IMG/VR virus record: IMGVR_UViG_3300049215_000481
Span: 78,857 to 142,856 of that record
DNA length: 64,000 nt
Strand: one strand, 5' to 3'
DNA from: a virus
Shown here: positions 16,233-38,881 of the stretch, one piece after another
Position numbering within the stretch: position 1 is the stretch's first letter
Layout: every line of letters begins with the position of its first letter
Translations under genes and position numbers: made by a program
Notes under the pieces: generated by a model
Databases searched by the model: none
What the model was told of the DNA's origin: nothing
What the model saw: only the letters and a program-made list of their open reading frames with translations

Positions 16233-16233
16233 C

Positions 16234-17205
16234 GTGAGGATTCTCAAGGTCGGCGACGTCCACGCGACGCCAGACGAGCTGGACGACTGCGAATGCCTCA
16301 TGGCGTTCGTGCTCGCCACGGCACTCGCGCTGAAGGTCGACTACGTCTGCCTGCTGGGCGACTCGTACCACACGCACAACATCATCCGCGTGGAGGTGCT
16401 CGCGTTCTGGCGCCGCTGGTTCGCGACGTTCAAGAGCCACGGCATCAAGGTCATCGGCTTGGTCGGCAACCACGACTACGGCGGCGAAGGCCTCTCCATC
16501 CACGCCATGATGGCGCACGAAGAGCAGATCGAGGTCGTCGACCGCCCGACGGTCAAGGAGGGCATGTTGTTCATGCCCTACTACTCTGACCGCGAGAAGT
16601 TCGTCGTCGACTGCTGCGCCGCCGCGCCGCTCACCAAGACACTCGTCTGTCACCAGACGTTCCAGGGTGGGAAGTACGAGAACGGCTTCTACGCCGAGGA
16701 CGGTGTCAACCCCGACCTCATCCCGCACACGTACATCCTGTCCGGCCACATCCACACGCCCCAGACGTTCGGCAAGGTCACCTACATCGGCGCGCCCAGG
16801 TGGCGCACGCTCAGCGACGCCAACATCGACCGAGCGATCTGGCTGTACACCTTCGCCGACGGCGAAGTGGTGGGTGCGGAGTCGTTCGATCTCGGCGATG
16901 TGTGCAGGCGGATCTACTACTTCGAGGACACCCCCGAGACTCCATTCCTGGGCACTGTCGACCCGCGGCACGACTACCGCATCGACGTCCGCGGGCCATC
17001 CGACTGGGTGACCGCTCGCAAGCAGTTCTACGGTTCCGGCGTCAACGTCCGGATATTCCGAACGGACCAGGCGGTCGTCAAGGTCCGTGAGTCAGAGGGC
17101 ATCGACAAGGCCTTCGTGAGCTTCATGGAGCGCTATCGGCCGAAGTTCGGGACGGACCCCCAGCTCCTGCAGTCGATGGCGAAGGAGAGGCTCGCGTATG
17201 TCTAG
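16234..17205 (+). CDS. SbcD/Mre11/gp47-like metallophosphoesterase nuclease
   Basis: GDVH, LLGD, GNHD, CHQ, SGHIH calcineurin-like motifs; partner SbcC-like gene at 4983-7127. Confidence 0.88.
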   Translation: MRILKVGDVHATPDELDDCECLMAFVLATALALKVDYVCLLGDSYHTHNIIRVEVLAFWRRWFATFKSHGIKVIGLVGNHDYGGEGLSIHAMMAHEEQIEVVDRPTVKEGMLFMPYYSDREKFVVDCCAAAPLTKTLVCHQTFQGGKYENGFYAEDGVNPDLIPHTYILSGHIHTPQTFGKVTYIGAPRWRTLSDANIDRAIWLYTFADGEVVGAESFDLGDVCRRIYYFEDTPETPFLGTVDPRHDYRIDVRGPSDWVTARKQFYGSGVNVRIFRTDQAVVKVRESEGIDKAFVSFMERYRPKFGTDPQLLQSMAKERLAYV

Positions 17206-17569
17206 CATGCAGCCCCCTGCAGACCCGGCGCACCAGCTCATGGTGCTCAAGGCCGCGACGAAGACGACCGGCATCGTCCACGAAGCCCAGATCTTCCAGC
17301 TCCGCATGTGGGGGCGCCTGTGCCTGCAGCACGTGGAGCCTCCAACCGTCCAGGTCCTGCCGCTCGACCGTGAAGTGATCTACCGGTCGCCAGCCACCCT
17401 GAAGGGGAAGGTCGCCAAGAAGACGATCGACGCCAGGCTCACGGCGCTCAACGACTCAGTGAAGTGGTTGCTGGGTGACGACTGGTCGCTCCTCGTTGAA
17501 GTGGCTGGAAACGCAATCTTTCCAGCTAGCACCAACGATGCCCCAAGACCTCGTACCAGTAAGCGATAA
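17198..17569 (+). CDS. hypothetical protein
   Basis: 123 aa ORF overlapping both neighbours. Confidence 0.6.
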   Translation: MSSMQPPADPAHQLMVLKAATKTTGIVHEAQIFQLRMWGRLCLQHVEPPTVQVLPLDREVIYRSPATLKGKVAKKTIDARLTALNDSVKWLLGDDWSLLVEVAGNAIFPASTNDAPRPRTSKR

Positions 17570-18179
17570 AGAACAACGCCTCGCCGAGGCGCTCGCCGCG
17601 CTCACGCCCAGAGAGCTGGACGCGTACAAGTACTTCGTCCGCACGAAGCAGACGGAGGTCGCCGACGCGACCGCGGAGGAGATGTACGCCTTCTTCGTGA
17701 AGGGCTCCACCTGCGACGAGATCCGTCGGCTGATGGTCGGCTTCTCCCTCGGTCAGATCGTCGGCGCCCGCGTGATGAAGGGGTGGGACGCACGCCTCGC
17801 TGCGTATCGCGAGTCGCTGGCCGTCGACATCCCTCAGCGCGCAGCGCAGACGCAGTTGGAGAGCGCCGACCTGCTCGCTGCGATGCTCTCCGCGACCAAC
17901 CGCCAGTGGTTGGACAAGCTGAAGCGTTACGTCGCCACGGGCGACGCAACCCTCATCGCCGACATCCCGCTGCCGAAGAACCTGAAGGACCTGGCGACCC
18001 TGACCGAGCTGTTCCTGAAGGCGACAGGACAGGACAAGAAGCGCGTCGAGGTCACCGGCACCGTGCGCCACGAGCACGCGAAAGCCCCTCTGTCCGCGAA
18101 GGAGGCCGCGAGCCTGCTGGACGAGCTGGACGAGGACGACGCTGTCGACGCCGAGTTCACAGAGGCGCCGCGTGGGTAA
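17538..18179 (+). CDS. putative terminase small subunit
   Basis: helical protein directly upstream of terL, with C-terminal KRVEVTGTVRHEH beta-strand pattern. Confidence 0.55.
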   Translation: MPQDLVPVSDKEQRLAEALAALTPRELDAYKYFVRTKQTEVADATAEEMYAFFVKGSTCDEIRRLMVGFSLGQIVGARVMKGWDARLAAYRESLAVDIPQRAAQTQLESADLLAAMLSATNRQWLDKLKRYVATGDATLIADIPLPKNLKDLATLTELFLKATGQDKKRVEVTGTVRHEHAKAPLSAKEAASLLDELDEDDAVDAEFTEAPRG

Positions 18180-20109
18180 GAAGTTGACGCCCGAGCAGCG
18201 CGAGCAGCACCTGCGTCGCGCCCTCTTCGTCCCGTGTGAGACGAAGGAGGCCCTCCACAAGTGGATTCGGCACTACCTCGGCCTGGATGTCCCGAACTGC
18301 ATCGTCGAGCCGACGAGTAACTCGTCGCCGATGGACATGATCTGGGAGATCTACGACAGCCTCCGTCGTGGTGGCTCCGAGGACATGAGCCGCGTTCTCT
18401 ACTACGCGTCTCGCGACTCCTTCAAGACGCTCGGCGCCGCGATCCTCGAAGTGCTGGCCGTCGTGCACCTGCGGCTCAGCGTCGCGCACATGGCCGCCAT
18501 CGAGGCGCAGTCCATCAAGTCGCAGATGTACGTCAAGGGCTTCTTCGGGAAGGCCTTCCTGCGCGAGTACATCGTTGGTGACAGCAAAGAGATCACGAAG
18601 TTCCAGCGGTACCTGAATAAGGTCACCGGGGAGAACCTCACGCTCGAACAGTACGAAGAACTGCCTGAGGGCGCGAAGGCGCAGTACACCGTCATCGAGA
18701 ACTACATCCGCATCGTCATCTGCACGATGGCCGGCGCCAACTCCGAGCACGTGCCGCTCCTGGTTGTGGACGAGGTCGACGTCGTTCGCGACCCCAAAGC
18801 CTACGAGCAGGCGAAGCTGATTCCCGCGCAGTGGGCGGGCACCCTCCCTGTCACCGTCCTCACGTCCACCCGCAAGTTCGCCTTCGGCATGGTCCAGAAG
18901 GAGATGGACGAGGAGTTCGGTCCCGACGGCGACCGGCGTCTCCACATCCGCCACTGGAACATTATCGACGTCACCGAATCGTGCGCCCCGACGCGCCACC
19001 TGCCCGAGCTGCCGAAGATCCCGATCTACGTTGACGAGGACCGGCTCCGTGCCATCTCCGAGGACCAGTACAAGCTGCTGCCCCCGGACGAGCTGCAGAA
19101 GTTCAGGAAGGAGGAGGGCTACCAGGGCTGCCTCAAGAACTGCCGCCTCTTCTCCGCGTGCCACGGCCGCCTCGCGACCGAGCAGAAGTCGAAGTCGCCG
19201 CTCCTCAAGTCGGTAGCCGACACCCTCAACAAGTTCCGAGGCCTCGGCAAGAACATCGAGATGGCCCAGGCGGAGCTGCTCTGCAAGAAGCCGTCGAAGA
19301 AGGGCCTCATCTACCCGAACCTCGACCGCTCCGTGCACCTGCTGACGCCGGCCCAGATGGCCGAGAAACTCACCGGCGACACGTTCCGGCCCGACTTCAC
19401 CAAGGCAGAGCTGATCGCGCTGATGCAGACGCGCGACGTGAAGTGGTACGCCGGCCAGGACTACGGCTGGACCCACAACTTCGCCGACGTCACCGGCGCG
19501 GTCGACGGAGCCCGCTGCTTCATCGTCAACGTCGTCTCGGCCCCGCAGCTCATGCCCGACCAGATTGTGCGCGCCGTCGACCATCTCAAGCGCTACGGCC
19601 GCGCCGTCTTCGGCGATCCCGAAGACCCGAAGATGGTGGCCATGCTGCGCGCCGCCGGCCACCGGATGCGCGCGTGGCACAAGGAGCCCGGCTCTGTCGT
19701 GGGCGGCATCAACGTCGTCCGCATGCGGCTGACGCCCACCATGGGCGAGCCCCTGCTCTTCTTCCTCGCGGGCGACCCGATGGTCGAGCTGCTCTTCAAG
19801 AGGATGAGCGAGTACCACTGGAAGCTCGACCCGACCGGCACACTCGTCGATGGCGAGCCGGACGAGGAGAACGACGACGAGTGCGATGCGCTCCGCTACC
19901 TGGTGATGAACGTCTTCGCCCCCAAGGGGAAGGTGAAGGCAGCCAAGGAGCCCGAGCACGCCCGGTCCCAGGAGACGCCTGCGGGCGTGTACACGCGCGA
20001 GAACCTCTTCTCGAAGATCTTGGAGGAGCGCGGGGTCGTCAGCGGTGGCGGAGAGAGCGCTGACCAGGCCATCGGACGCCGTGGCTCGGTCAAGTGGGAC
20101 ATGAGCTAG
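18172..20109 (+). CDS. terL: terminase large subunit
   Basis: Walker A variant ASRDSFKT, Walker B LLVVDEVD, nuclease GQDYG and DDECDALRY; upstream of portal. Confidence 0.88.
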   Translation: MGKKLTPEQREQHLRRALFVPCETKEALHKWIRHYLGLDVPNCIVEPTSNSSPMDMIWEIYDSLRRGGSEDMSRVLYYASRDSFKTLGAAILEVLAVVHLRLSVAHMAAIEAQSIKSQMYVKGFFGKAFLREYIVGDSKEITKFQRYLNKVTGENLTLEQYEELPEGAKAQYTVIENYIRIVICTMAGANSEHVPLLVVDEVDVVRDPKAYEQAKLIPAQWAGTLPVTVLTSTRKFAFGMVQKEMDEEFGPDGDRRLHIRHWNIIDVTESCAPTRHLPELPKIPIYVDEDRLRAISEDQYKLLPPDELQKFRKEEGYQGCLKNCRLFSACHGRLATEQKSKSPLLKSVADTLNKFRGLGKNIEMAQAELLCKKPSKKGLIYPNLDRSVHLLTPAQMAEKLTGDTFRPDFTKAELIALMQTRDVKWYAGQDYGWTHNFADVTGAVDGARCFIVNVVSAPQLMPDQIVRAVDHLKRYGRAVFGDPEDPKMVAMLRAAGHRMRAWHKEPGSVVGGINVVRMRLTPTMGEPLLFFLAGDPMVELLFKRMSEYHWKLDPTGTLVDGEPDEENDDECDALRYLVMNVFAPKGKVKAAKEPEHARSQETPAGVYTRENLFSKILEERGVVSGGGESADQAIGRRGSVKWDMS

Positions 20110-20139: not shown

Positions 20140-21111
20140 ATGTCGGCTTTGACTCTCATCATCAAGGCGCTGTCGTTTGACGACGACGCGGTGAACAGCA
20201 ACCCCGCTCAGAAGGGGATCGATCGCGGCCGGACCCTGTCGGGGCTCACGGTCGAGAACGACGAAACCCTGAAGGTCATGGTCGACCCGGGCGCCAGCGT
20301 CACCGTCTTCGACGGATCGCGCACCCTCGGCCACGACAACACGACCGACCTGCAGCTCACGCTGAGCCCGCTCGACCCGAACCGCTACCGAGTCACCTGC
20401 ACGAGTGGCCCTTCGCCAGCATTCCGCACGAACCGCAACCTCGCCACGAGTGGGAAGAACGTCCAGTGGCAGGTCAACGCCAACCAGACGGCCACGCTCA
20501 CCATCACGGCCTACTCCCCGCCTTGGTCGGTCGGTGACACCCTGTTCGTACCCGGTGCCAGCACCGGCGACTCCCCGTCAGCGTTCAACGCGCTGAACGA
20601 GGGCTACTGGACGATCCTGGCCGCGAGCGGGAACCAGGCGACGCTCGCGCGCTTCCCCGGCGAGGTCTTCTCAGGCTTCACCGAGACGGTCACGTCACCG
20701 GACAACAACGCCCTGCAGGCCTTCTCGGCCGCGGGCGTCCAGGTCGGCGACACCATCGACATCAGCGCGGGCTTCTCCGTGACGGCGCAGCACTCCTACG
20801 ACGTCGTGGCTGTGAACCCCAACTGGGTCGAGTTCATCAGCACCGCGCCGCTCGGCGAGGAGGTCGCGCAGCCCGGCCAGGCAGGCTTCGTCATCTACGA
20901 CGCCGCCAAGCGCTTTCTCTACATCGAGACCGACCAGGAGGTCGTGGTCCAGGTGAACGGTGACACCGGCAACTACAACCGCGTGGAGCCGGTTCTGCCC
21001 GGCGACAAGAAGTTCGTCGGCCCCTATATGAAGTGGGGCCACGCCTGGAAGCTGGTGCTCGTGAGCCGCTCCACGGCGCGCGCCAACGTCACGGTCTGTG
21101 CGGCTGAATAA
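20140..21111 (+). CDS. putative virion structural protein (beta-rich)
   Basis: between terL and portal, motif B upstream, Thr/Val/Gly-rich. Confidence 0.55.
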   Translation: MSALTLIIKALSFDDDAVNSNPAQKGIDRGRTLSGLTVENDETLKVMVDPGASVTVFDGSRTLGHDNTTDLQLTLSPLDPNRYRVTCTSGPSPAFRTNRNLATSGKNVQWQVNANQTATLTITAYSPPWSVGDTLFVPGASTGDSPSAFNALNEGYWTILAASGNQATLARFPGEVFSGFTETVTSPDNNALQAFSAAGVQVGDTIDISAGFSVTAQHSYDVVAVNPNWVEFISTAPLGEEVAQPGQAGFVIYDAAKRFLYIETDQEVVVQVNGDTGNYNRVEPVLPGDKKFVGPYMKWGHAWKLVLVSRSTARANVTVCAAE

Positions 21112-23297
21112 TGGCCAAAGCGACGAAGGGTAGCGTCGGGGTCTCGTCCCTGGCGGCCAGCAACGGGTTCGCGGTGGCTTCCACCGCACCGCCCATCAAG
21201 AAGTCGTTCGTCATGATGGCGCCCGACATGCCGGAGCCGCGCCAAAAGGGCGGCGACGACGGGATGACGCTCTACAAGTCGATCGTCAACATCCTCAACG
21301 GTGGCCGCGAGGACTCCGTCGAGCGCCTGGCGTTCGAGACCGACCCGCAACTGGTCAACCAGTTCCAGTCCGTCTATCGCGCGAAGCTGCGCCTCGTCCC
21401 GGACGTCCTCCTGAAGAGGATCATGATCCAGGACGACCTCGTCGCGTCGATCGTCCGCGCGCGCGAGACGCAGATGTCCGCCTTCGGCCGCCCGCGGCCG
21501 GACAGGTTCTCCACGGGCTACGTCATCGAGCCCCGCGTCGGCATCGTCGACAAGATGACGCCCGAAGAGAAGCAGACCCTGGAGGTCCGCATCGAGGGCG
21601 CTGTCCGCAAGTTCGAGACGTGCGGCAGCAACGAGGGTCTCGACCGCGAGGACTTCATGTCGTTCTCGCAGTACCTGATGATGAGCGCCCGCAACGCGGT
21701 CGGTCTCGGTCGCATCGCGACGGAAATCATCTGGACCAAGACGGCCAGGGACTCGGAGGAGAAGAAGTTCCACTCCTTCCGCCCGACGGATGCCGGCACG
21801 ATCTACAAGGCGACCAAGCAGAAGCAGGCGGCAGAAGCAGTCCGCAAGCAGGCGCTCGCGATCCTCAAGCAGATCACGAACAAGAAGCTCATCGAGGAGA
21901 AGAAGTTCTTCGACGACGAGTACGCCTGGATTCAGGTCATCGACGGTCAGCCGCGCCAAGCGCTGAGGTCTGACGAGATGGCCGTCCACACCTTCTTCCC
22001 GGTGGCGGACGTCGAGCTGGACGGGTACCCGGTCACGCCGATCGACACGATGATGTCGGCGATCACGACCCACATCAACATCACCACGTCGAACCGGCTC
22101 TACTTCCAGAGCGGTCGCGCCACGCGCGGCATGCTGCTGTTCAAGTCGGACGACATCGACGAGCACGCGCTCGCCCGCATCAAGCAGCAGTTCAACGCGT
22201 CGATCAACAACGTCAACAACTCGTACCGAATGCCGGTCTTCGCAGTCGGCAGCGGCGACGAGATCACGTGGGAGCCCATCGACAACAGCTCCCGCGACAC
22301 CGAGTTCCAGTACCTGACGGACATGAACGCGCGCGTGATCTTGAGCGCGTTCCAGATGAGCCCAGACGAGCTGCCGGGCTGGTCCTACCTCAGCCGAGGC
22401 ACGAACAACCAGGCGCTGTCCGAGAGCAACAACGAGTACCGCCTGGAGGCCGCTCGCGACCTGGGCATCCGGCCGCTGCTCGCGAACTTCGAGGACTTCG
22501 TCAACTCGGTCCTCTTCCCGCTCATCGACCCGGACCTGGCGAAGATCTGCCGGCTCAAGTTCAAGGGTCTGGACGCGGACACCGAGGAGAAGGAGTCGGT
22601 CCGGCTGCAGCAGGACATGCCGGTCCACATGACCTACGACCAGGTTCTCCAGAAGGTGGAGAAGAAGCCGATCGGTCGCGCCATGGGTGGCGAGTTCCCG
22701 CTCAACCCGCAGTTCCAAGATGTCCTCGACAAGTACTTCACGGTCGGCCAGATCCTGGAGTTCTTCATGGGCGTCGAGGGCGCCTCGAAGGACCCCAAGC
22801 TCGCCTACTTCCGCGACCCGTTCTGGTTCCAGTACCAGCAGCTCCTCCTGCAGCAGCAGCAGCTCCAGATGCAGCAGCAGCAGGCGCAGATGCAGCAGGC
22901 GGCGGCTCAGCAGCAGGCCGCTGGTACCGGCGGTCCAGGCGCGGAGCAGGCCGAGGGCTCGGGTGTCGACGTCGAGGGTTCGCCCGGTGGTGGAGATGAC
23001 CAGCAGCCCGGCGGCAAGAAGGACAAGACGCCGTACGGCAGAGCTGACGACGATCAGCAGGCCCAGGCCCAGCAGAAGGCTGGCGCCGAGGCTTCTGCTG
23101 GCCAAGACCTAACTCGCTCGATCGACCAGGCCATCGCCATCCTGACGAAGAGCGAGAGTCACCTCCCGCTGTCGAAGCGCAAGCTGCTCGCGCAGAGCCG
23201 CAAGACGCTCGACCACTTCCGCATCGGCTTGGAGAACGACGCTCGCGAGGCGACGAAGGAGATCGTTGCCCTCGCCGAGAAGCACGTGAGGCCGTAG
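21111..23297 (+). CDS. portal protein
   Basis: GRATRGML, RMPV, DTEFQ, RVILSAFQMSPDELPG, GIRPLL portal-like motifs; position in the head module; Gln-rich C-terminal extension. Confidence 0.85.
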   Translation: MAKATKGSVGVSSLAASNGFAVASTAPPIKKSFVMMAPDMPEPRQKGGDDGMTLYKSIVNILNGGREDSVERLAFETDPQLVNQFQSVYRAKLRLVPDVLLKRIMIQDDLVASIVRARETQMSAFGRPRPDRFSTGYVIEPRVGIVDKMTPEEKQTLEVRIEGAVRKFETCGSNEGLDREDFMSFSQYLMMSARNAVGLGRIATEIIWTKTARDSEEKKFHSFRPTDAGTIYKATKQKQAAEAVRKQALAILKQITNKKLIEEKKFFDDEYAWIQVIDGQPRQALRSDEMAVHTFFPVADVELDGYPVTPIDTMMSAITTHINITTSNRLYFQSGRATRGMLLFKSDDIDEHALARIKQQFNASINNVNNSYRMPVFAVGSGDEITWEPIDNSSRDTEFQYLTDMNARVILSAFQMSPDELPGWSYLSRGTNNQALSESNNEYRLEAARDLGIRPLLANFEDFVNSVLFPLIDPDLAKICRLKFKGLDADTEEKESVRLQQDMPVHMTYDQVLQKVEKKPIGRAMGGEFPLNPQFQDVLDKYFTVGQILEFFMGVEGASKDPKLAYFRDPFWFQYQQLLLQQQQLQMQQQQAQMQQAAAQQQAAGTGGPGAEQAEGSGVDVEGSPGGGDDQQPGGKKDKTPYGRADDDQQAQAQQKAGAEASAGQDLTRSIDQAIAILTKSESHLPLSKRKLLAQSRKTLDHFRIGLENDAREATKEIVALAEKHVRP

Positions 23298-23298
23298 C

Positions 23299-24084
23299 TT
23301 GCCGGCTACGCTCTCACGGGGAGCGATCCGGGCGGTCAACGCGGCCGTCGATCGCGTCTTCGACAGGATCAAGGGCCGGGTCATCGGTCCCGACTTCATT
23401 CGCGCTCGCGGCGACAAGCAGATCTTCATCGGTCACAAGCCGGCGCTCTCCCTGCCCGGCATCTACCGCCAGGCGGCAGCAGAGGAAGGCTCACGCGCGG
23501 ACGAGACGATGGTGCACGGCCTCTCCAAGGTGGCCGAGAGCTACATCGACGCTCAGCGCGAGGCGACCAAAGCCCGCGTCCTGCGTTCGGTGAACGCGTG
23601 GCTCGCCGACAACAAAAAGGCCGACGTCCAGACGGTCCTGGGCGGCGAGCTGGCAGACGTCTGGGGCAAGGTGATGTCGGACGTCACCAAGATCATCGAC
23701 ACCGAGAGCACCGCGGCCCGCAACCTGGGCACTCTCGAAGGCATCACGAAGGTGTCGGCCGCCCACGACATCGCCGATCCGACCGTCTACTGGGTCACGG
23801 TGCGCGACACCGAGATGTGCGAGGAGTGCAAGCGCCTCCATCTCATCGACATCGACGGCCACACCATCCCGCGCGTCTGGAAGCTCAGCGAGGTGTCGTC
23901 GGGCTACCACAAGCGCGGCGACGAGCACCCGTGCACGTCCGGGCTGCACCCGCACTGCAGGTGCACGATCGGCAACCTGATGCCGGGCTACGGGTTCGAC
24001 GACACGGGCAATGTGAAGTTCATCAAGCTCGGCTGGGACGAGTACGCCCGCCAGCGCGGCTCAACGCCCGACGAAGACTCCTAG
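23299..24084 (+). CDS. head morphogenesis protein (Mu gpF / SPP1 gp7-like)
   Basis: follows portal; VRDTEMCEEC...GLHPHCRC motif. Confidence 0.75.
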   Translation: MPATLSRGAIRAVNAAVDRVFDRIKGRVIGPDFIRARGDKQIFIGHKPALSLPGIYRQAAAEEGSRADETMVHGLSKVAESYIDAQREATKARVLRSVNAWLADNKKADVQTVLGGELADVWGKVMSDVTKIIDTESTAARNLGTLEGITKVSAAHDIADPTVYWVTVRDTEMCEECKRLHLIDIDGHTIPRVWKLSEVSSGYHKRGDEHPCTSGLHPHCRCTIGNLMPGYGFDDTGNVKFIKLGWDEYARQRGSTPDEDS

Positions 24085-24632: not shown

Positions 24633-24682
24633 GTAGAGGACATAGCGAATCCGTCCCGATCGCCGCCCGCAATCTTGGGGAG

Positions 24683-27600
24683 GTGGCGAGCACCGGCATG
24701 ATCATCGACGGAGTCCTTGGCTCGGAAGCCATCGACTCCTCAGGCGAAATCCTCGACGTCGAGGGCGCCGACATCTCCGACGTCGACAAGGGCACCCTCC
24801 TCCTCAACTGGGAGCACGAGCCCGGCGAGAAGGGCGCCAACACCATCGTCGGCAAGGTCATCGCCGCCAAGAAGATCTTCGGGCCCGACGACTGCGAGAA
24901 CGACCGCCAGTACGCGTACTGGCAGAAGGTCAAGCTGCCGTTCATCTACGGCATCTGCCGCCTGTTCGACGGCGCCGGCCACGAGAACGCGAAGGCCATC
25001 GCGGCCATTATCCGCGACAACGCCGCCCACGGCGAGATGCTGGTGTGCCGGTTCAGCGTCGAGGGCTCGACGCTGGAGAAGGAGGGCAACCGCCTCAAGG
25101 CCTCGGTCATCAGGCGCGTCGCCGTCACGGTGAAGCCCTGCAACCGGACCGCGAATTCGGGCCTGATCGAGGACCCGAACGCGCCCGAGGGCTTCGAGAC
25201 GAACGTCGCGAAAGAGAAGACGTCCGACCTGCTCTCCCTGCAGGACGCCCACAAGAACGAGCTGGCCCACCCGCTCTACGAGCGCCTCGGCCGCTCCGAA
25301 GAGATCACGTGCAACCCGCTCGTCGACGGCGAGCTGGCGAAGGCCCTCACCCTCGGCGGCGGCGACGTCGCCCCGAGCGCGACCGCGGGCTTCGGCGCGC
25401 TCGTTCCGCAGAGCATCGGCAAGGGCACCGTCCTCGCCACGCTCCGGGACTACGGCTCGAAGAAGAAGTTCGACAAGACCGAGTTCCGCGCGTTCGCGAA
25501 GATGCGCCTGCCCGAGGCGAGCGACGAGTTCCTCGACCACTTCAGCGACATGGCCGAGGACTACCACGTCCGTCGCGCCCAGCTCGTGAAGAAGGAGGAG
25601 GCGGCCCCCGCTGCGAAGCAGCCGAAGGTGAAGGTCGCCAAGCCGGCCGCCCCAGCGGCGGCCAAGCCGGCCAAGGCCGCCAAGCCGAAGGAGCAGCCCG
25701 TCGACGAAGAGGATGCCGCGCCCATCAAGATCGCGAACGGCACCATCCGTGGCATCCCGACGCAGCCGCTCAAGATGCGCGGGTACAAGTTCGACGAGCA
25801 GAACGGCATTCTGCACACGCCCAAGGGTAGCTTCCCGCTCTACAACCCGGACAAGGGATTCGCGACGGTCGAGCACGCTGGTGCAAAGACTCCGTTCTAC
25901 AAGGACGGCAAGCTGCACGTCGCGCCGGGCACTGACATGTCTACGGTCCCGGCCAACACGCCGAACCCCGGCTTTCGCGAGATCTACAACTCGCAGCCCA
26001 TCGAGGACTTCCACAGCGGCAAGGTCATGCCGAACTGGATTCGTCTGCACGAGCTGACGAAGTCCGGCCAACTCCCCGACGAGGTCGTCATGCACTCGGC
26101 GATGTTCTCGATGATGTCGCCCAACACGCCCGTGCGCCCGCACGAGCTGATGTACTCGCACCTGGCGGACACGTTCGAGGACCTCGGCATCGACCCGCGC
26201 GACCCCGACTTCAAGCGCGCTCGCAAGCACTGGCTCGACAAGGACCAGGGCACGAACTACCCGCGTCTGGCCGGCGACTACTTCCGGAACCACGCGGACG
26301 CCCACCTGAGCAACGACTCCGAGGCCAAGGGGCGCAAGGCCGGCGAACTGATGTCGTTCATGCTCGGTCAGAACAAGTTCGACAACGTCCAGCAGTACCA
26401 CAAGCTCCACTCGACGCTCGTCGACATGGTGAAGCGCCACGGCGTCAACTCGCGTGCAGCCACTGCGGAGTTGATGGGACACAAGCACAAGCAGCAGCTC
26501 TTCAAGCAGAAGTACGGCGCTGCGAAGTCAGAGGCGAGGAAGGCCGGCTTCGCCGCTGGTCTGCGCGACCACAAGATAGACTACGTCACCGCGCAGGAGG
26601 CCGCGTACGGCAAGAAGATCGACGAGCGGCAGATCGCTGGCCTCCGCAAGCAGTGGCGGGCCGAGGCTGACAAGCTCGGCCTGAAGAACGACCTCTCGGA
26701 GCACGCGGAGAACGCTGCGAAGGCGAAGATGGGCGAGTACAAGGGCGTCACCGTGCCCGGTCTCGCGCCCAAGACGGGTCGCTTCACGTTTACGATGTTG
26801 GGCGGTGGCAACACCTTCGTCCCCGACACGCACATCATCCGGCACCTCTTCGGCATGGATGCCGACAAGGATGGCGACACGCTCGCCTACCTCAAGTCCG
26901 TGCTCTGGAACGCGAACAACCACCACGTCCTCGAAGGCATCGACCGGTGGTATGCGAAGAACCACCCAGCCGCGCAGACGATGCAGCAGCACCCCACGTG
27001 GGGTCGCCACTTCCAACAGGACCCCGAGCAAGCGAACTTCCCCGCGTTCTGGCGCCACTGGTGCTCGATCGCCGAGGACGAGCGTCGCCGCGGCATGGTC
27101 AACAAGTCGGCCAACGAGTTCTCCACGCACGAGCCGTTCTTCCTCAAGATGAACAGCATCCTCGACCGCCTGAAGAAGTCCGCGGTCACCGGCATCGACC
27201 ACGGGCTCCTCGCGCGCCTGCTCGTCCTGCACAGCCAGTACCACGAGCAGTTCGGCGAGATCCCGGCGCAGATGATGTACGTGCACCACATCGTGCCGCA
27301 CCTCCTGGAGATGGCGCAGTACCGCCAGCGGCACGACGACCTGCCCGACTTCGCGAAGCACCTCCGCGTGAACGCGCTGGAGATCGAGCTGCGCAAGGCT
27401 GCCTCGGACCTGCAGGCAGCGTCGCTCGCCGACCCGCAGATCCCGACCATCCACGGCGTGCACCTGAAGATCAACGGCCAGGAGCACCGCGCCGGCCGCT
27501 TCGCAATCGCCGACGGACACATCCACCACTTGGAGGACTACTACGGCCTCCTCAACGAGGTGCTGCCCGAGGGCAAGCTCACGCCCGCGAAGGTCGCGAC

Positions 27601-28648
27601 CATCCACGGCATGAAGATGTCGCCGTCGCTGCGCGTGGACGTCGAGCACGTCGGCCTCCCGAAGTACGACGAGGTCCCACAGGAGATCCCCGCGGCGCAG
27701 CCGCTGAAGCGGCCGATGCCGTCCGTCTTCCACTACCGCCGCGCAGGCATGGACCAAGACCACGTCCTGGAGGTGCGTCAAGGGCACTACCTGCTCGACG
27801 GTAACCGTTTGTCCTACCCGGAGGTCCAGTCGGTCGTCAGCAACCTCCGCGACGGCTCGGCGCAGATTCGCTATCCGAACAAGGAAGGCGCAATCGAGCA
27901 GATCCGGAAGATGGAGTCGCAGTTGCAAGACCTGATGAAGGCCGCGTCGGAAGAAGAGGGGCCGGAAATCGACGAGGACGCGATGCTGCAGCATGCACGC
28001 GCGGCCGAGGCGGCTGGACACCTGCCGAAGGGCTTCGCCCGCAACTACGCGCGCTCCCTCTACGAGGACCCGATGACCCCGGGCATGGGCAACAAGAAGG
28101 CGTGGCAGAACTTCGCCGAGAAAAAGAAGCCGGGCACCTACATCCAGATGGACGGGAACTCGTTCAAGGCCATCAACGACGCCTTCGGGCACCAAGGCGG
28201 CGACTCGGCCATCAAGGCGTTCGGAGCAGCCGCACGTTCAGCGATGGACGAAGCTGTCGGTCAGACGCACGGCAAGCTCTTCCGCAACGGCGGCGACGAG
28301 TTCATCGCGCACGTCCCGAGCCCCGAGCACGCGGCCAAGTTCTCGCGCCTGCTCAGTCAGAAGCTCCAGGCGATGCCCGCCATCGAAGGCAAGCACCAGC
28401 TCTCGATGGCATTCGGGTTTGGCCACACACCCGAGCACGCTGACAAGGCGCTCTATGCGGCTAAGGCGCAGAAGATCGATCCGGCTACAGGGAAGTCGCG
28501 CTGGCCGATTGGCCAGGTGCCGAATCTTGCCCACTCCCTGGTGCCTGGTCATGAGGGACCACTCCCTCTTCATGATCCGCAAGCGGCGGCTGTGCATGGG
28601 CTGCAAGATACGCCACAGCCCGCCGCAGCAGCTCAGCCGAATCTCTAA
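24683..28648 (+). CDS. prohead protease polyprotein: protease + HhH-GPD-like domain + GGDEF diguanylate cyclase
   Basis: N-terminal DSSGE, NWEH, FSVEG protease motifs; middle PGLAPKTG...VPDTHIIR; C-terminal DPMTPG...DGNSFKAINDAFGHQGGD...RNGGDEF...ADKALYAAK. Confidence 0.85.
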   Translation: MASTGMIIDGVLGSEAIDSSGEILDVEGADISDVDKGTLLLNWEHEPGEKGANTIVGKVIAAKKIFGPDDCENDRQYAYWQKVKLPFIYGICRLFDGAGHENAKAIAAIIRDNAAHGEMLVCRFSVEGSTLEKEGNRLKASVIRRVAVTVKPCNRTANSGLIEDPNAPEGFETNVAKEKTSDLLSLQDAHKNELAHPLYERLGRSEEITCNPLVDGELAKALTLGGGDVAPSATAGFGALVPQSIGKGTVLATLRDYGSKKKFDKTEFRAFAKMRLPEASDEFLDHFSDMAEDYHVRRAQLVKKEEAAPAAKQPKVKVAKPAAPAAAKPAKAAKPKEQPVDEEDAAPIKIANGTIRGIPTQPLKMRGYKFDEQNGILHTPKGSFPLYNPDKGFATVEHAGAKTPFYKDGKLHVAPGTDMSTVPANTPNPGFREIYNSQPIEDFHSGKVMPNWIRLHELTKSGQLPDEVVMHSAMFSMMSPNTPVRPHELMYSHLADTFEDLGIDPRDPDFKRARKHWLDKDQGTNYPRLAGDYFRNHADAHLSNDSEAKGRKAGELMSFMLGQNKFDNVQQYHKLHSTLVDMVKRHGVNSRAATAELMGHKHKQQLFKQKYGAAKSEARKAGFAAGLRDHKIDYVTAQEAAYGKKIDERQIAGLRKQWRAEADKLGLKNDLSEHAENAAKAKMGEYKGVTVPGLAPKTGRFTFTMLGGGNTFVPDTHIIRHLFGMDADKDGDTLAYLKSVLWNANNHHVLEGIDRWYAKNHPAAQTMQQHPTWGRHFQQDPEQANFPAFWRHWCSIAEDERRRGMVNKSANEFSTHEPFFLKMNSILDRLKKSAVTGIDHGLLARLLVLHSQYHEQFGEIPAQMMYVHHIVPHLLEMAQYRQRHDDLPDFAKHLRVNALEIELRKAASDLQAASLADPQIPTIHGVHLKINGQEHRAGRFAIADGHIHHLEDYYGLLNEVLPEGKLTPAKVATIHGMKMSPSLRVDVEHVGLPKYDEVPQEIPAAQPLKRPMPSVFHYRRAGMDQDHVLEVRQGHYLLDGNRLSYPEVQSVVSNLRDGSAQIRYPNKEGAIEQIRKMESQLQDLMKAASEEEGPEIDEDAMLQHARAAEAAGHLPKGFARNYARSLYEDPMTPGMGNKKAWQNFAEKKKPGTYIQMDGNSFKAINDAFGHQGGDSAIKAFGAAARSAMDEAVGQTHGKLFRNGGDEFIAHVPSPEHAAKFSRLLSQKLQAMPAIEGKHQLSMAFGFGHTPEHADKALYAAKAQKIDPATGKSRWPIGQVPNLAHSLVPGHEGPLPLHDPQAAAVHGLQDTPQPAAAAQPNL

Positions 28649-29090
28649 AGTGGCCGAGGCCGGCGTTGCACGGCTGGCACAGCAGGGCGCGGACCTGCCC
28701 CGTCTCGTGATCGTGGTCAACACTGAAGTATTTCCGCGTTGGCGGACCGCCACAGATCGCACACCCTCCGCCCTGGCTCGCGACCAGTGCATCGTAGTCG
28801 GCCAGCTCTAGACCGTAGAGGTGTCGGAGATGTCGGCGCCTGTTCCCGTTTGCATTGTCGCGCGTGACAGCCTTCCGTCGCTTTTCGGGATGGAGCGCAT
28901 TCCAGGTTGTGGCGTTGTCCTTGGTACAGCTCTTACACAGGCCGTAGAGGCCATAGAAGTGGGTGTCCAACGGCAGCGTCTTCTCGCACTGCCTGCAATT
29001 CCGCAGGTTACGTGCTCGAAGACAGCGCTGGCACCGCGCGGGCGTGTGCGCGCGGCTTGCGACGTACGGGCATCTGAAGTCGTTATTCAC
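28485..29090 (-). CDS. free-standing HNH endonuclease (EndoVII-like), 3' end antisense to the protease polyprotein
   Basis: CAICG...[27 protein letters not shown]. Confidence 0.85.
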   Translation of the reverse strand: MNNDFRCPYVASRAHTPARCQRCLRARNLRNCRQCEKTLPLDTHFYGLYGLCKSCTKDNATTWNALHPEKRRKAVTRDNANGNRRRHLRHLYGLELADYDALVASQGGGCAICGGPPTRKYFSVDHDHETGQVRALLCQPCNAGLGHFRDSAELLRRAVAYLAAHAQPPLADHEEGVVPHDQAPGSGQDSAPGQSASATSL

Positions 29091-30055: not shown

Positions 30056-30997
30056 ATGTCCACGAAAGACATCAACCTCGACACGCTGGTGTCCGAGGTC
30101 AAGAAGGAGCTGGAAGGGCTCCTCAAGGCGGAGGCCGACGTTCTGGCCAAGGCCCATCCCGGCGAGGACACTTCGGACGAGACCCCCGCGGACGAGTCCG
30201 CGACGGCCTCGGAGGCCAGCTCGCCGGCTGACGCGGGTCCTCCCGCTGACGACGCTTCGGCGTCCGCTGCGCCTCCGCCCTCGGGTGACGGCGACGCTGA
30301 CGACGCTCCCCCGGCGGATGCCTCGGGTTCGGCCCCGGCCGACGCGAGCGCCTCGGGCGATCCCGCGGCCGACGCGACCACGGACCACGACGCGCTCGTC
30401 GCCGAGTACAGCAAGCTCGACGCCGAGACGCTGAAGGCGCACTTCCTCGCGGCGAAGGAGGCCCTCATGGCCGCCCTCGGCGCGGACGCAGCCGGAGCGG
30501 CCGACGGCGCCCCCGCAGCTCCTCCCGCTCCGGCGGCGGACGCGGGCGCACCTCCTCCGGCAGCAGCGGCGGCGCCCCCGATGGACGCCGGCTCTCCTCC
30601 TCCCGACGCGCCCCCGGCGCTGAAGGGCGAGATGCCGGCCGACGGCAACGGTGAGAACCCGCTCGACGCGGTTCGCAAGGCCGAGGCCACGGTGAAGGAC
30701 GCCGAGATCGCCGCGCTCAAGAAGAAGGTCGCGGAGCAGGACGAGGCCCTCGGGAAGCTCGTCACGGCGATGAAGGTCGTCGTCGAAGCTCCGGCGCGCA
30801 AGACGGTGACGTCGCTCACCCAGATCAAGAAGAACGAGGGCGTCGACGTCACGTCGATGTCGCGCGACCAGGTTCGCGCCGCTCTCCGTCGCAAGGCGGA
30901 AGGGAAGCTCAGCAAGTCGGACCGCGAGCTGATCAACCAGTTCGCTCTGAACCTCATCACGGTCGAGAAGGTCGCCCACCTCCTCGAAAACAAGTAA
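30056..30997 (+). CDS. putative capsid scaffold protein
   Basis: acidic Ala/Pro-rich with coiled-coil segments, directly upstream of the major capsid gene. Confidence 0.65.
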   Translation: MSTKDINLDTLVSEVKKELEGLLKAEADVLAKAHPGEDTSDETPADESATASEASSPADAGPPADDASASAAPPPSGDGDADDAPPADASGSAPADASASGDPAADATTDHDALVAEYSKLDAETLKAHFLAAKEALMAALGADAAGAADGAPAAPPAPAADAGAPPPAAAAAPPMDAGSPPPDAPPALKGEMPADGNGENPLDAVRKAEATVKDAEIAALKKKVAEQDEALGKLVTAMKVVVEAPARKTVTSLTQIKKNEGVDVTSMSRDQVRAALRRKAEGKLSKSDRELINQFALNLITVEKVAHLLENK

Positions 30998-31064: not shown

Positions 31065-32468
31065 ATGAATCTCATCGAGCAAATCGGCGGCCTGGTCAAG
31101 GCACTCGAAGCCGGCAACTACGACGCGGCCCCCAGCCGCCTGCAGCAGGGCGCGGCCCTGCAGGTCGAGGACCTGTCCGACGTCATGCACAACGTGACGT
31201 TCGACCAGGACAAGATCAAGCTGCAGAAGATGCTGAAGGTCGAGAGCTGCAAGAGCCAGCTCGCGCAGTTCAACCGTCAGCTCAGCTACGGCATCATGGG
31301 CGGCGCCGCCGCCATGGAAGGCGGCATCGGTCAGGAGGAGACCTCGGATTACGTCCGTGTGACGGTTCCGATGGCGTACTACTCCGAGCTGCGCCGGGTC
31401 ACGCTCCAGGCCAACCTGGTCGAGACCGTGGACGGCGTGAAGGCGGAGGAGCGCGCGGCTTCGGACGCGGCGATCCACCTGGCGGCGAACATCGAGTTCG
31501 ACTGCTTCCGCGGCATGGCCGACTTCAGCAACGCGGGCGTGTTCGACGGCAACCCGCTGACGATCGCCGACCTCCCGAACATGCACGGTCTCGACCTGCA
31601 GGTTCGCCAGAGCGACAACCAGCGCAGCTCGCGCGACCTCATGTTCTCCGAGTTCGGCTCGGACGAGACGGTCGTGCTCTCGCAGGGCGGCGTCCTGACG
31701 CAGGAGACGGTCGAGGACGCGAGCGTCCGTTCGGCCCTCAACTGGGGTGAGGCGGAGAAGCTCATCATCGACCCGCGCTCGCTCAGCGCGTACAACAAGC
31801 TCGCGTTCGGCATCTCGCGCAACGTTCTCGCGGGCCAGCCGCTGGACGCGACGGGCGCCGACCTGCGCAAGCAGTGGGTGAGCGGCGGCACGGTCTCGAT
31901 CGAGGCGTCGCACTTCCTCCGCGGCAAGTACAAGCCCGCTCCGGCTCGCGCCAACGGCCCCCTGGCCCCGGCGTCGATCTCGCCGGCTTCGACCACGGAC
32001 GCGACGGCCCCCACGGCCTTCACCGCCGGCCAGGTGTACATCTACACCGCGACGAGCTGCAACGAGCTGGGCGAGAGCCTCCAGTGCGCGTCGCAGTCGG
32101 TGACGATCGGGACCACGGCCGACAAGGTCGTCGTGACGATCAACCACCCGGCGTCGGGCACGGTCCGCTTCTTCAACGTCTACCGCACGGTGGCGGGCGG
32201 CGCGGCCGGCACGCAGAAGTTCATCGGCCGCGTGGTCATCACGCCGGGCGCGAACTCGACGACGTTCACGGACCTCGGCAACAAGCTGCCCGGCTTCGTG
32301 ACGGGCTTCCTGATCGAGGGCGACACGATGATGCTCAAGGAGCTGGCGTCGTACTCGCGCGTGAAGCTGGCGGTCACCGACCTCAGCATGCCCGAGGCGC
32401 ACTTCCGCTTCTGCACCCTCGCGGTGACGGAGCCCCGCAAGAACGTCCTCATCGACAACCTGAAGTAG
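31065..32468 (+). CDS. major capsid protein (resembles SPO1/Twort-like MCPs)
   Basis: LVKALEAG...GAALQVEDL N-terminus, EETSDYVR, DAAIHLAANIEFDCFRG; AGGAG SD; followed by a terminator. Confidence 0.88.
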   Translation: MNLIEQIGGLVKALEAGNYDAAPSRLQQGAALQVEDLSDVMHNVTFDQDKIKLQKMLKVESCKSQLAQFNRQLSYGIMGGAAAMEGGIGQEETSDYVRVTVPMAYYSELRRVTLQANLVETVDGVKAEERAASDAAIHLAANIEFDCFRGMADFSNAGVFDGNPLTIADLPNMHGLDLQVRQSDNQRSSRDLMFSEFGSDETVVLSQGGVLTQETVEDASVRSALNWGEAEKLIIDPRSLSAYNKLAFGISRNVLAGQPLDATGADLRKQWVSGGTVSIEASHFLRGKYKPAPARANGPLAPASISPASTTDATAPTAFTAGQVYIYTATSCNELGESLQCASQSVTIGTTADKVVVTINHPASGTVRFFNVYRTVAGGAAGTQKFIGRVVITPGANSTTFTDLGNKLPGFVTGFLIEGDTMMLKELASYSRVKLAVTDLSMPEAHFRFCTLAVTEPRKNVLIDNLK

Positions 32469-35510: not shown

Positions 35511-36041
35511 ATGCGGCAGGTGTCCTTCCACTTCATGCACAAGAAGCGTCCGACCTCCCGCCACGCGCAGGAGGACAAGGACGGGTGGGTGCGGATGTAC
35601 CAGCAGGGGAAGAGCTATCGCGAGATCGCGGTAGCGTTCGACGTACCGTATCCGAGCGTCTTCTACTATGTCAGGAAGACCCTCGGCATCACTGACGGAC
35701 GGAAGCCCGGACGCAAGAAAAAGTACACGGATCTTTCTCCTCGCCAGGTCCAGCGCAACTGCCAGCTCAGGAACTCGTACGGCATCTCTCTCGACGAGTA
35801 CGCAGTATTGAAGGAGTCGCAGGGTGGCGTCTGCGCGATTTGCGAACTGCCGCCGAAGAACGGCAAGACGTCGACAAGTGCACTGCACGTAGATCACGAC
35901 CACGAGACTGGTCGAGTGCGTGGGCTGCTCTGTCAGAAGTGCAACCCAGCTCTCGGCCAGTTCAACGACGACCCAGACCTGCTGGAGCGTGCGGCCTCGT
36001 ACCTGCGCCTTCACCGTGAAGCTCAGAAGGTGGCTGCGTAG
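35511..36041 (+). CDS. HNH endonuclease (EndoVII-like) with N-terminal HTH
   Basis: [14 protein letters not shown] helix-turn-helix; CAIC...[20 protein letters not shown]. Confidence 0.88.
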
Positions 36042-38881
36042 TGGCTGAAGTCGCTCTGATCACCGCATACAACGGCCACGGCCAGCTCCTCTTCGGGAAG
36101 CGCAAGGACAACGGCCGCTGGACCCTCCCGGGCGGTCACTTCGAGGAGGGCGAGACTCCCGAGCAGGCGGCGCGCCGCGAGATGTTCGAGGAGACGGGTC
36201 TGCACGCGCAGACTCTCGTCCCGTTCGCCACGTTCACGAACCCGCAGGGCATCACACTGCACTGCTTCTCCGCGTTCGTCACCGGCGAGCCCCACAGCAA
36301 CTTCGACCCCGACGACGAGGTCGAGAAGTGGGAGTTCGTTGACATCGAGAACGGCATCCCGTCGAAGATCTGGGAGCACCTCCACGGTCCGCAGGACGAT
36401 CAGAACCTCGTCCGCCGCGTGTTCGAGGCTGAGGGCCTGTCGAAGGCCGAGGAGCCGCTGGCGAAGGCCAAGTGGCGCGTCAAGGACAGCGACGTCTACA
36501 CCACGTACGAGTTCCCCGACGAGGAGTCGGCGAAGGAGTACCGGAAGAAGGCGGGCAGCAAGTACGAAGACGACTGGAAGGGCATCGGCGTCTGTGAGGT
36601 GAAGGGGAAGCGCGTGGTCGCCCGCGCGTGGAGCGACTCTAACCTCGACGACTTCACGTCGCTCGCGGTGAAGATGGGAGGCAAGATCGTCGACGCCGAC
36701 GACATGGACGACCTCGTGTCGCCGGAGCGCTTCCGCGAGCTGGGGAAGGCCGAGGACGAGGTCGGCAGGCTCCTGGAGCATCCCTCGCCGCACGAGCGCA
36801 CGCTCGCGCTGAAGCTCAACACCGTCACGCCGCGCCACCTGCAGACGGCCTCGCTCGACCCGCACCCAGACGTGCACTCGCTCGCCATCGCGAACCCGCA
36901 GTTCGGGCACGCGGAGGCACACCACCTGATGTCGGCTTCTGCCGGCAGCGACGGGAAGTTCCCGCTCGTGCAGCAGCACGAGTTCCTGCGCCAGCACGAC
37001 CGCGTTCGGCCGTACCACCTCGTCTCGTTCGTGAACAACGCTCGCGCTCACGCCGCGGGCGACGACCTCGACCGCGCGCTGACCATCGCTGTCGGCCACC
37101 CCAGCCTGCCGCCTGTCATGGTGCGGTCTCTGTACCTCGACCCGCGCACCTCAGCGGCGCACCGCCTCGCCCTAGTGGGTCATATGAAGGCGCCTGTCGA
37201 CGTCCTGGAGCACGCCCTCCACACGGGCCTCATCGTCCCGTCGGCCGAGGCGACCTCACTCGCACAGGCTGCGGTCGCACACCCCTCCCTCCCCCACAGC
37301 TCCGTCGAGCACGTCGTCAAGATGGCCGGTGACCGAGGCGAGCCGCACGTCGTCGCCATCGCGACCCACGCTCTCAAGACGAACGCCACGTCGCCGGAGA
37401 TGAAGGAGCACCTCTTCACGCAGACGCTCCTGAAGCCGCGCTCCGCAGCCTCGCGCGCGCTCCTGAACGCGTTCCTGGAGGGGCCCTCGGCGAAGCCCGA
37501 GGACCGCCAGCGCGCTCTCGGGCAGTTGCTGAACAAGTCCGAGCCGCTCGCGAAGGCCGTCGCCCCGCAGCACTTCAGCTCCATCGTGAAGGCGCTCGAC
37601 CCCGAAGCTCACAAGCTCGTTGACCACAAGCCAGACCTGTCCGCGCACCCGCAGTCGCACGGCGCCGAGGTCCAGGCGTATCACCACAACGTCGTGAACA
37701 GCGCCCAGCGCGTTGGCGCGCACTCCAGCGGCAGCGCTGGCCTCGGCGGTGGCATCACGCGCAAGAAGGTGTTCCGCTACCAGGTCCCGGGTCAAACAGA
37801 GCCCGGCAAGGCCATGGTGAAGCCCTATCACGAGCGTGTCATCCAGCGCTGCAGCAAGTGGATGAAGTATCCGATCCAGGGCTGGGCCGAAATGACGACG
37901 CAGGCCCTCTTCCACGCAGGCGGCATCGGGCACCTCCACCAGAAGGTCCACGTCACAGAGCACAACATGGGTCCGGGGCACGAGCACGAGCCCGCCCTGG
38001 TCGTGCACCTCGCCCCGAATCACCTCGCGGTCACGGACGGCGGTCGGACCTACTACAAGCCCGAGCAACACGACCTGGACGTGCGGAAGATCGCGCTGAT
38101 GGACTTCCTTACGAACAACAACGACCGCCACGGTGGGAACTTGATGTTCAACGCCGACACCGGCGCACCGCTCGCGATCGACCACTCGCGGAACTTCCAG
38201 TACATCCGTCCGGCGCAGGACCGTTTGTCGCTGGACCGCACGCCCGACGGCGAGGACACGTTCAAGAACTACGCAACCGGTGCGCTCCACGGCATCGCCA
38301 GTCCGGTCACGGAGGATGTCCGCCGCAACTACGACTACGACAAGCCGGGTGACCGCCAGCGCGCCCTGTACGACGCGCAGCTCGACGGCATGCGGAAGTA
38401 CGCCCCGGCCTTCGAGTGGTGGGACGAGGCGGGTCCGAAGATCCGCCAGGAGTTCCACAAGCGCCTCGACCAGATCAAGGACCCGGAGGTGCGCGACCAC
38501 CTGAAGCGCAACTTCGATGCGCGCGCCGACTGGCTCGACGAGCGCGGGCATTTCGGCTTGGAGAACTACGGCGGCGACTGGTACCACGACGCCGTTCCGA
38601 TGTACAAACCGGACCAGCTCTCCGAGGCGGAGAAGGACGACCCCGAGGCCGTGGCCCGCTTCAACGAGCGTATCCGCGCGAAGCAGGACGCAGAGAAGAA
38701 GGCGCGCGCGGACAAGCGCAACGCGAAGAAGGCGTATCAGAACTGGCTCAACGAGAAGCCGCAGTACCCGCACCACATCATGAGCCTGCCTCGCGAGCAG
38801 ATCGACCAACACCCGGACTGGAAGAAGTACGTCGAAGCGTACGATCCGTGGCTCGCGCGACGGCCGGCGGAGGCAGCGTAA
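36041..38881 (+). CDS. multidomain protein: NUDIX hydrolase + HEAT-like repeats + HipA/PI3-PI4K-like kinase
   Basis: NUDIX box [24 protein letters not shown]; helical repeats; [13 protein letters not shown]...AIDHSRNF. Confidence 0.8.

Follow-up and report, generated by a model that had tools for sequence, protein, structure and literature searches.

The stretch of DNA analyzed here is a window of 64,000 nucleotides (positions 78,857 to 142,856 of the 169,280-bp virus record IMGVR_UViG_3300049215_000481), and all coordinates given below are those of this window unless another genome is named. Within its head module is an open reading frame (ORF) for a polyprotein of 1321 residues (24683..28648, plus strand, as are all features of the polyprotein described below). 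The polyprotein begins with a domain that has the fold of a prohead protease and ends with a GGDEF diguanylate cyclase domain. We propose that the head of the phage, an Mx1-like myophage, is probably loaded with this cyclase, which may then be injected into the host.

The polyprotein gene and its surroundings

The ORF has a GC content of 0.91 at third codon positions (GC3) and about 108 homologs. It can be read from a GTG codon at 24683 or from an alternative ATG at 24698. In the start region (24675-24700), a GGAGG sequence is located 1 base 5′ of the GTG and 16 bases 5′ of the ATG, and the choice of start codon is uncertain. Homologs that begin with MSTGM or MATGM favor the upstream GTG.

The gene is located between the genes for the portal protein (21111..23297, plus strand; PF04860 at 44.8 bits, with additional matches to portal PHROGs) and the major capsid protein, or MCP (31065..32468, plus strand; phrog_752, E 3e-42), which is the position expected of a prohead protease gene. 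A large terminase gene (18172-20109) and a weak MuF-like gene (23299-24084) complete the upstream context. The MCP gene is preceded, here and in all relatives, by a gene for an acidic, Ala/Pro-rich protein that is probably the scaffold (30056..30997, plus strand).

This head-module gene order is identical in Myxococcus phage Mx1 (169,621 bp) and in seven related metagenomic contigs (136-177 kb). Mx1 is a distant relative of the virus as judged by protein searches (~36% protein identity), and the GC content of its genome is 55.5%, compared with 65% for the virus. The relatives of the polyprotein were likewise obtained by protein searches. A search of phage genomes for near-identical DNA gave no match, and a peptide-pattern scan of viral contigs found no relative.

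The GGDEF domain and its active site

The GGDEF domain spans residues 1129-1264 (28067..28474), as defined by Pfam, NCBIfam and PDB profile matches together with homolog conservation. An earlier note, prepared from the DNA letters, had described an intact-looking GGDEF domain at 28067-28472. That description holds, because the translation of this interval, DPMTPGMGNKKAW...ADKALYAAKAQ (residues 1129-1263, beginning with DPMTPG), contains every motif listed. Pfam assigns residues 1138-1264 to PF00990 (E 1.2e-14; 54.9 bits versus a gathering score of 23.8). A genome-wide scan scores the domain at 59.2 bits and reveals it to be the sole GGDEF in the 169-kb record. The TIGR00254 model is matched at 37.8 versus a threshold of 37.4, and the NCBIfam matches are confined to models for diguanylate cyclases or GGDEF-containing phosphodiesterases. 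Furthermore, when a profile of 45 homologs was compared with the PDB, 45 of the 47 sequences matched are named as diguanylate cyclases or GGDEF-domain proteins (best E 4.3e-13).

The metal-binding Asp is present as D1157 in MDGNSFK (28151-28153), and the guanine-binding residues N1165 (28175-28177) and D1174 (28202-28204) are found in INDAFGHQGGD. These metal- and guanine-binding residues align with DLDRFKHINDSLGHPIGD of 5m3c. The GGDEF motif occupies residues 1203-1207 (28289-28303) with R1201-N immediately ahead, and an ADKALYAAK helix closes the domain.

Of 108 homologs recovered with the whole protein, 83 (28-83% identity) have this GGDEF as their C-terminal part, and residue conservation was counted over these 83 sequences. 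D1157, N1165, R1201, K1261 and K1264 are each kept in 82, and H1170 in 79. D1174 is kept in 74 and replaced by Asn in seven, with no Ser variant. The signature motif is similarly constant (G1203 in 81, G1204 and D1205 in all 83, E1206 in 81). Because the catalytic residues are thus 89-100% conserved, the relaxed selection that the earlier note had proposed looking for is not seen. From these sequence comparisons, we consider it very probable that the domain is catalytically competent. Two other identities, a pseudo-GGDEF and a palm domain of the Cas10/mCpol type, were considered and ruled out by the residue conservation and by the near-exclusive matches to diguanylate cyclases and GGDEF proteins in the PDB.

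Many, although not all, GGDEF domains carry an inhibitory I-site, RxxD, five residues before the GGDEF motif. Here QTHG (residues 1194-1197; 28262-28273) occupies the equivalent position. Gly holds the fourth position in 71 of the 83 homologs, and therefore the I-site is absent clade-wide. Likewise, a Pfam scan of the polyprotein detected no PAS, GAF, REC or other known sensory domain. Both absences had been reported earlier, along with the suggestion that the cyclase is unregulated. The missing I-site stands, but "unregulated" reads too much into it, since the domain comes with a leader specific to the clade and with a C-terminal tail that is conserved. This tail (IGQVPNLAHSLVPGHEGPLPLHD; 28508..28576), with the clade-specific motif PNLAHSLVPGxEGP, directly follows the GGDEF domain and is found only in GGDEF-bearing homologs. 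A role for the tail as a capsid-targeting peptide was considered and rejected; polyproteins that end in other modules lack the tail, and therefore it is not a general targeting sequence.

Enzymes of the GGDEF family must form homodimers to join two GTP molecules. A structure prediction for two copies of the domain with GTP and Mg scored 0.35, where the mark is 0.42, a value that speaks neither for nor against dimerization.

Perhaps the domain makes a different nucleotide, or its product acts on defense systems instead of on the c-di-GMP physiology of the host, serving as a decoy or competitor signal against CBASS, type III CRISPR or Panoptes-like guards along with an mCpol-domain protein of the phage (48152-49339; PF18182, E 5.6e-10). 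The presence of this protein in the window, together with that of a NUDIX-kinase protein in the virion module, is consistent with such an anti-defense function. Panoptes is known to guard a cyclic-nucleotide pool, and the authors who described it expect phages to have counter-measures (PMC12657218). Iyer et al. (2017) also proposed that GGDEF domains in polyvalent proteins interfere with host nucleotide signaling (PMC5512222). However, the guanine-specifying residues N1165 (82/83) and D1174 (74/83) are retained with no Ser variant, and nearly all PDB profile matches are canonical synthases of cyclic di-GMP (c-di-GMP). A Ser change at the guanine-specifying position is reported for the Hypr GGDEF enzymes that make cyclic GMP-AMP (cGAMP). 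Moreover, we know of no defense system that is silenced by c-di-GMP. We therefore consider an anti-defense function of this kind quite improbable.

It can also be imagined that the GGDEF domain serves head assembly itself, either structurally or as a regulator. It would bind GTP or c-di-GMP and thereby organize the prohead core or set the moment at which the protease becomes active, and it would not signal in the host. Its placement in a core-forming polyprotein, and the possession of a clade-specific leader and tail that have no counterpart in cellular cyclases, fit this idea. A purely structural role would not require that catalytic, metal-binding and base-specifying residues all be kept at 89-100%, nor does it agree with the freedom with which the domain is split off from the polyprotein (see below). 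To us, a structural or regulatory function of this kind appears very improbable.

The prohead protease domain

The N-terminal domain (residues 1-165; 24683..25177) adopts, in an AF2 model, the fold shared by herpesvirus assemblins and T4 gp21. For the model of residues 1-235, built with 40 homologs, block-mean pLDDT values are mostly above 90 (81-97) over residues 1-170. The best match by VIA-align is T4 gp21 (5jbl_A; Z 10.5, root-mean-square deviation 2.5 over 124 of the 165 residues). Herpesvirus assemblins fill the 35 rows that follow (Z 5.7-9.3), and unrelated folds score at Z 4.9 or lower. Foldseek gave a similar outcome, with 49 herpesvirus assemblins and T4 gp21 making up the top 50. 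Invariant columns provide candidate catalytic residues. All 40 sequences have His45 (24815-24817) and Ser125 (25055-25057), and His100 is conserved to at least 90%.

The N-terminal region has no match in Pfam, PHROG or NCBIfam, and its sequence profile has no significant match in the PDB. Because no sequence library recognizes this region, its assignment to the prohead proteases is founded on fold and context. Regardless, the modeled fold, the conserved residues and the gene position together support the view that this is a real prohead protease domain. The claim of the earlier note that the cyclase is fused to a prohead protease is thus borne out in that the two domains share one chain. That wording omits approximately 900 residues that separate them, which include a further putative enzyme domain.

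The region between the protease and the cyclase

According to the alignment and a further AF2 model, the protease is followed in order by a conserved MCP-like segment, an Ala/Pro/Lys-rich linker, a small beta domain, a large helical domain and two small beta domains. The MCP-like segment reads LAK|ALTLGGGDVAPS... (a vertical bar denotes a candidate cut site), with the family consensus L-x-K-A-L-x-A-G...A-A-P-S-x-L-x-G-G-A-A-L. It resembles the N-terminus of the MCP, GGLVK|ALEAGNYDAAPSRLQQGAAL (MCP residues 8-24, E 0.003), and the similar segments are located at 25334-25420 in the polyprotein gene and 31092-31175 in the MCP gene. This resemblance could reflect a shared, extended protease site or an anchor to the capsid lattice.

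Residues 426-816 (25958..27130) are predicted to form an HhH-GPD DNA-glycosylase fold with large helical insertions. The AF2 model used for this assignment has a pLDDT of 88. A sequence profile of the middle region found no significant match in the PDB, and Foldseek likewise found nothing significant with the model; the fold was revealed only by an exhaustive VIA-align search. The best match VIA-wide is 3n0u_A, an Ogg enzyme from Thermotoga (Z 14.8; the alignment takes in 207 of 209 residues), and each entry from rank 1 to rank 22 is either an HhH-GPD enzyme or a protein with the related DUF2419 fold of queuine salvage. HhH-GPD enzymes combine this fold with a Lys in the helix-hairpin-helix and an Asp some 18-20 residues downstream. 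In the polyprotein, Lys697 and Asp715 of PGLAPKTG...VPDTH (26762-26842) are invariant and 18 residues apart. The structural match and the invariant residue pair support a separate note on this region.

The two small beta-rich domains (residues 906-1075; 27398..27907) correspond to strands at model residues 571-712, and they accompany the GGDEF domain in most of the split forms described next.

Fused and split forms of the cyclase

An exhaustive search with residues 1087-1321 recovered 139 cluster representatives at E ≤1e-30, 294 at 1e-10 and 5249 at 1e-3, such that the clade stands clear of the general GGDEF superfamily. When the best 150 clade representatives are sorted by architecture, the protease domain shares the chain in 40, the gene encodes beta domains plus GGDEF in 69 (median length 411 residues) and GGDEF stands alone in 31 (median length 236 residues). 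The search for other protease-GGDEF fusions that the earlier note had suggested thus found many of them.

Where the cyclase is not fused to the polyprotein, it remains nearby. In all five unfused relatives examined, the gene or genes that come next encode the GGDEF domain, and Mx1 has it in the second gene after that of the protease polyprotein. More specifically, a GGDEF gene of 243-429 residues follows directly or next but one in Mx1 (L001) and in the contigs L005, L007, L009 and L010. Such repeated fusion and fission at a single locus would be expected if cleavage of the fused chain yields these pieces anyway.

Sister polyproteins carry other modules at this place, namely a PBECR5 nuclease, DUF5661 or a HipA/PI3K-like kinase, sometimes alongside GGDEF. 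All three are typical injected-effector domains. Some polyproteins end in the PI3K/HipA-like kinase, and one (P0023) has both the kinase and GGDEF.

Candidate cleavage sites

Candidate cut sites were defined as conserved islands of the form hydrophobic-x-Lys within otherwise variable linkers, with conservation counted over 45 sequences. The first, LAK|A (25334..25345), follows the protease domain, with K220 in 45/45 and L218 in 30/45 sequences. LVK|K (25583..25594; L301 in 38/45, K303 in 40/45) marks the start of the variable Ala/Pro/Lys-rich linker (residues 301-350). LRK|A (27389..27400; L903 in 45/45, K905 in 44/45) follows the helical region, and the 150-residue gene of Mx1 begins approximately 12 residues downstream of the equivalent point.

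The leader before the GGDEF domain (27902..27943) contains two further candidates identified by homolog conservation, IRK|M at K1076 and LMK|A at K1086. The earlier note had named the LMKA site. This remains plausible, given that L1084 is retained in about 29 and K1086 in about 28 of about 35 ungapped sequences, but the [ILV]-x-K1076 motif located 10 residues upstream is the better conserved of the two (K1076 in 44/45). The separate cyclase gene of Mx1 begins at this leader and retains LEDLKK|M. The stand-alone cyclases of Mx1 and L007 have N-terminal leaders of 16 and 13 residues, respectively, that end in L-K-K and align to LMK|A. Moreover, split forms retain SLAK|A, ALSK|S or DLQK|S approximately 110-125 residues ahead of GGDEF.

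Similar motifs are present in other head proteins. The MCP N-terminus reads MNLIEQIGGLVK|ALEAG..., which includes the same LVK|A motif, and both LLK|A and LAK|A are found close to the N-terminus of the probable scaffold. L-x-K-A occurs 15 times versus 3.3 expected in a set of eight head or cargo proteins, whereas other genes of the window have four occurrences versus 6.3 expected. The conserved hydrophobic-x-Lys islands and the enrichment of L-x-K-A are consistent with sites cut by the protease.

The motif L-x-K-A/S is also observed at domain joints in virion-module proteins encoded at 36041-38881, 38882-40225, 44271-45122, 48152-49339 and 51961-53445, which include a protein with NUDIX and PI3K/HipA-like kinase domains, a second kinase-like protein and the mCpol-domain protein. 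This distribution suggests that the phage has a wider set of cargo addressed by the protease.

Perhaps the cyclase acts late instead, in the cell that produces the virions. It would build up there with the other late head proteins and synthesize c-di-GMP in the cytoplasm, before assembly or while it proceeds, where it might stop motility, block superinfection through changes in pili or exopolysaccharide, or delay development, and the fusion would be mere co-expression. The location of the gene within the late head operon and the conserved active site agree with this possibility, and high output would be possible because there is no I-site. Phages are also described as raising host c-di-GMP by another route, in which YIP peptides activate the host cyclase YfiN (PMC8085984). 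However, late action leaves unexplained why GGDEF is tied across the clade to the protease gene in particular, why conserved candidate cut sites and a leader precede the domain, and why, in sister polyproteins, effector modules of the nuclease and kinase types occupy this position. We therefore consider late action unlikely.

A proposed route for the cyclase into the host

The hypothesis that we favor, that the cyclase travels as cargo of the head, has support from the domain identities, the conservation of the active site, the gene context, the interchange of fused and split forms, and the conserved and enriched candidate cut sites. From these observations, we infer steps of incorporation, cleavage, retention, ejection, catalysis and host effect as follows. 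The protease domain of the gp21/assemblin type would take the polyprotein into the prohead. During maturation, the protease would cut the polyprotein at hydrophobic-x-Lys sites in the domain joints to release several pieces, including a GGDEF fragment of approximately 235-245 residues that starts after K1076 or K1086. This fragment, predicted to be a guanine-specific diguanylate cyclase that lacks the product-inhibition site, would be retained as cargo once the head is filled and would leave it together with the DNA. Early in the infection, it would dimerize in the new host and convert host GTP to c-di-GMP. The host would thereby be driven to a high-c-di-GMP state with altered motility, pili, exopolysaccharide or development. 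Because a genome scan found no gene for an EAL or PilZ protein in the phage, receptors of the host would be the targets of the product.

We assign a probability of roughly 0.5 to this chain as a whole, from packaging through cleavage and ejection to early synthesis of c-di-GMP in the host. Its parts differ in strength. Incorporation of the polyprotein into proheads is likely, and cleavage at or near K1076 or K1086 seems somewhat probable. Ejection of the fragment followed by an early role in the host is finely balanced and leans slightly toward doubt.

Several points weigh against this proposal. Phage heads usually lose the prohead protease and its fragments before DNA is packaged, and so retention of the GGDEF fragment is an assumption. 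A GGDEF domain on its own often has poor activity when no partner dimerizes it, and delivery by the virion would supply only tens of cyclase molecules per particle. The P value for the enrichment of L-x-K-A is indicative only, because the set of head and cargo proteins was chosen after the data had been inspected. Finally, our literature search found no paper on the virion proteome of Mx1.

We tentatively extend the proposal to Mx1-like phages in general. These phages might inject a capsid-borne, feedback-insensitive diguanylate cyclase that raises host c-di-GMP within minutes, before any phage gene is expressed. The cyclase would be one member of a protease-addressed cargo set that also comprises the glycosylase-like domain, kinases, NUDIX and mCpol proteins, all released at hydrophobic-x-Lys sites. 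We hold this broader version with considerable reserve.

Other features near the polyprotein gene

An endonuclease VII/HNH-type homing endonuclease gene (28485-29090, minus strand; PF02945, 83.6 bits) converges on the polyprotein ORF and covers its last 164 bases. The same tail-to-tail overlap of a homing endonuclease with the GGDEF gene is seen in the relatives L007 and L010. Therefore, the 3′ end of the GGDEF gene is a recurrent insertion site of the homing endonuclease.

In Mx1, genes for thymidylate synthase and a deoxynucleoside monophosphate (dNMP) kinase are located right after the capsid gene, inside the head module (Mx1 16154-17850). The arrangement gives a hint that phages of this group have modified DNA, to which the glycosylase-like domain might be linked.

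Significance and comparison with known systems

Cyclic di-GMP controls motility, pili and exopolysaccharide, as well as development in myxobacteria, and these surface structures and behaviors are those on which phages depend. If our proposal is true, this would be the first virion-delivered second-messenger synthase, and the phage would reset the c-di-GMP switch of its host before expressing any gene of its own, a form of host takeover that is so far undemonstrated. A literature search turned up no report of a cyclase that is packaged in virions or fused to a protease. Because the clade includes the cultured phage Mx1, whose host is genetically tractable, the idea is directly testable. In addition, a rule for predicting head-cargo enzymes in these phages can be drawn from the conserved motif of the candidate cut sites and from the ease with which fused genes and split genes replace one another.

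The closest known counterpart is Mx1 itself (OR576727.2), the only relative with a name, for which GenBank lists a "putative prohead protease" (WNM70322.1), a hypothetical protein (WNM70323.1) and a "nucleotide cyclase" (WNM70324.1). The two phages share 35-38% identity over the protease, the glycosylase-like region and the GGDEF domain, and the GGDEF of the Mx1 cyclase is intact. They differ in that Mx1 has three abutting genes (1239, 150 and 243 residues), whereas the virus examined here encodes a single chain of 1321 residues. The genome announcement for Mx1 reports no functional data on these genes.

Compared with canonical GGDEF cyclases (PF00990; PleD 1w25, WspR 3bre and DgcZ 3tvk), the metal-binding Asp, the guanine-binding Asn and Asp, the Arg-x-GGDEF motif and the AD-x-ALY-x-AK helix all align. 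Unlike these enzymes, the phage domain lacks both RxxD and a partner of the REC, PAS, GAF or CZB type, has a clade-specific leader and tail, and is encoded in a phage capsid operon as a fusion to a protease.

Phage polyvalent proteins, described computationally in 2017 by Iyer, Burroughs, Anand, de Souza and Aravind (PMC5512222), are predicted to be delivered on invasion. GGDEF is an occasional component of these proteins, and assemblin-like peptidases are stated to be always C-terminal in them (PMC5512222). Similar to polyvalent proteins, the polyprotein has several unrelated enzymatic domains on one phage chain, and its sister proteins have PBECR-type nuclease modules. With a protease, a predicted HhH-GPD fold and GGDEF, it has at least two unrelated effector-type domains and a link to virion genes, by which polyvalent proteins are recognized. 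Unlike them, its protease is N-terminal. The combination of protease, HhH-GPD and GGDEF domains, and its conservation across a clade, are not described in that study (PMC5512222).

The YIP peptides mentioned above are small and act on a host enzyme, whereas in the present case the phage encodes the cyclase itself. A different precedent is provided by the internal proteins of T4 and by Alt, in which a capsid-targeting leader is cut by the gp21 protease at a short motif and the cargo is injected with the DNA. The stand-alone cyclases of the Mx1 type, with leaders of 13-16 residues that end in the motif, resemble this scheme. As judged from the genes, the phage arrangement would differ from that of T4 in that the candidate motif is hydrophobic-x-Lys rather than Leu/Ile-x-Glu, and in that the cargo of the polyprotein is covalently joined to the protease.

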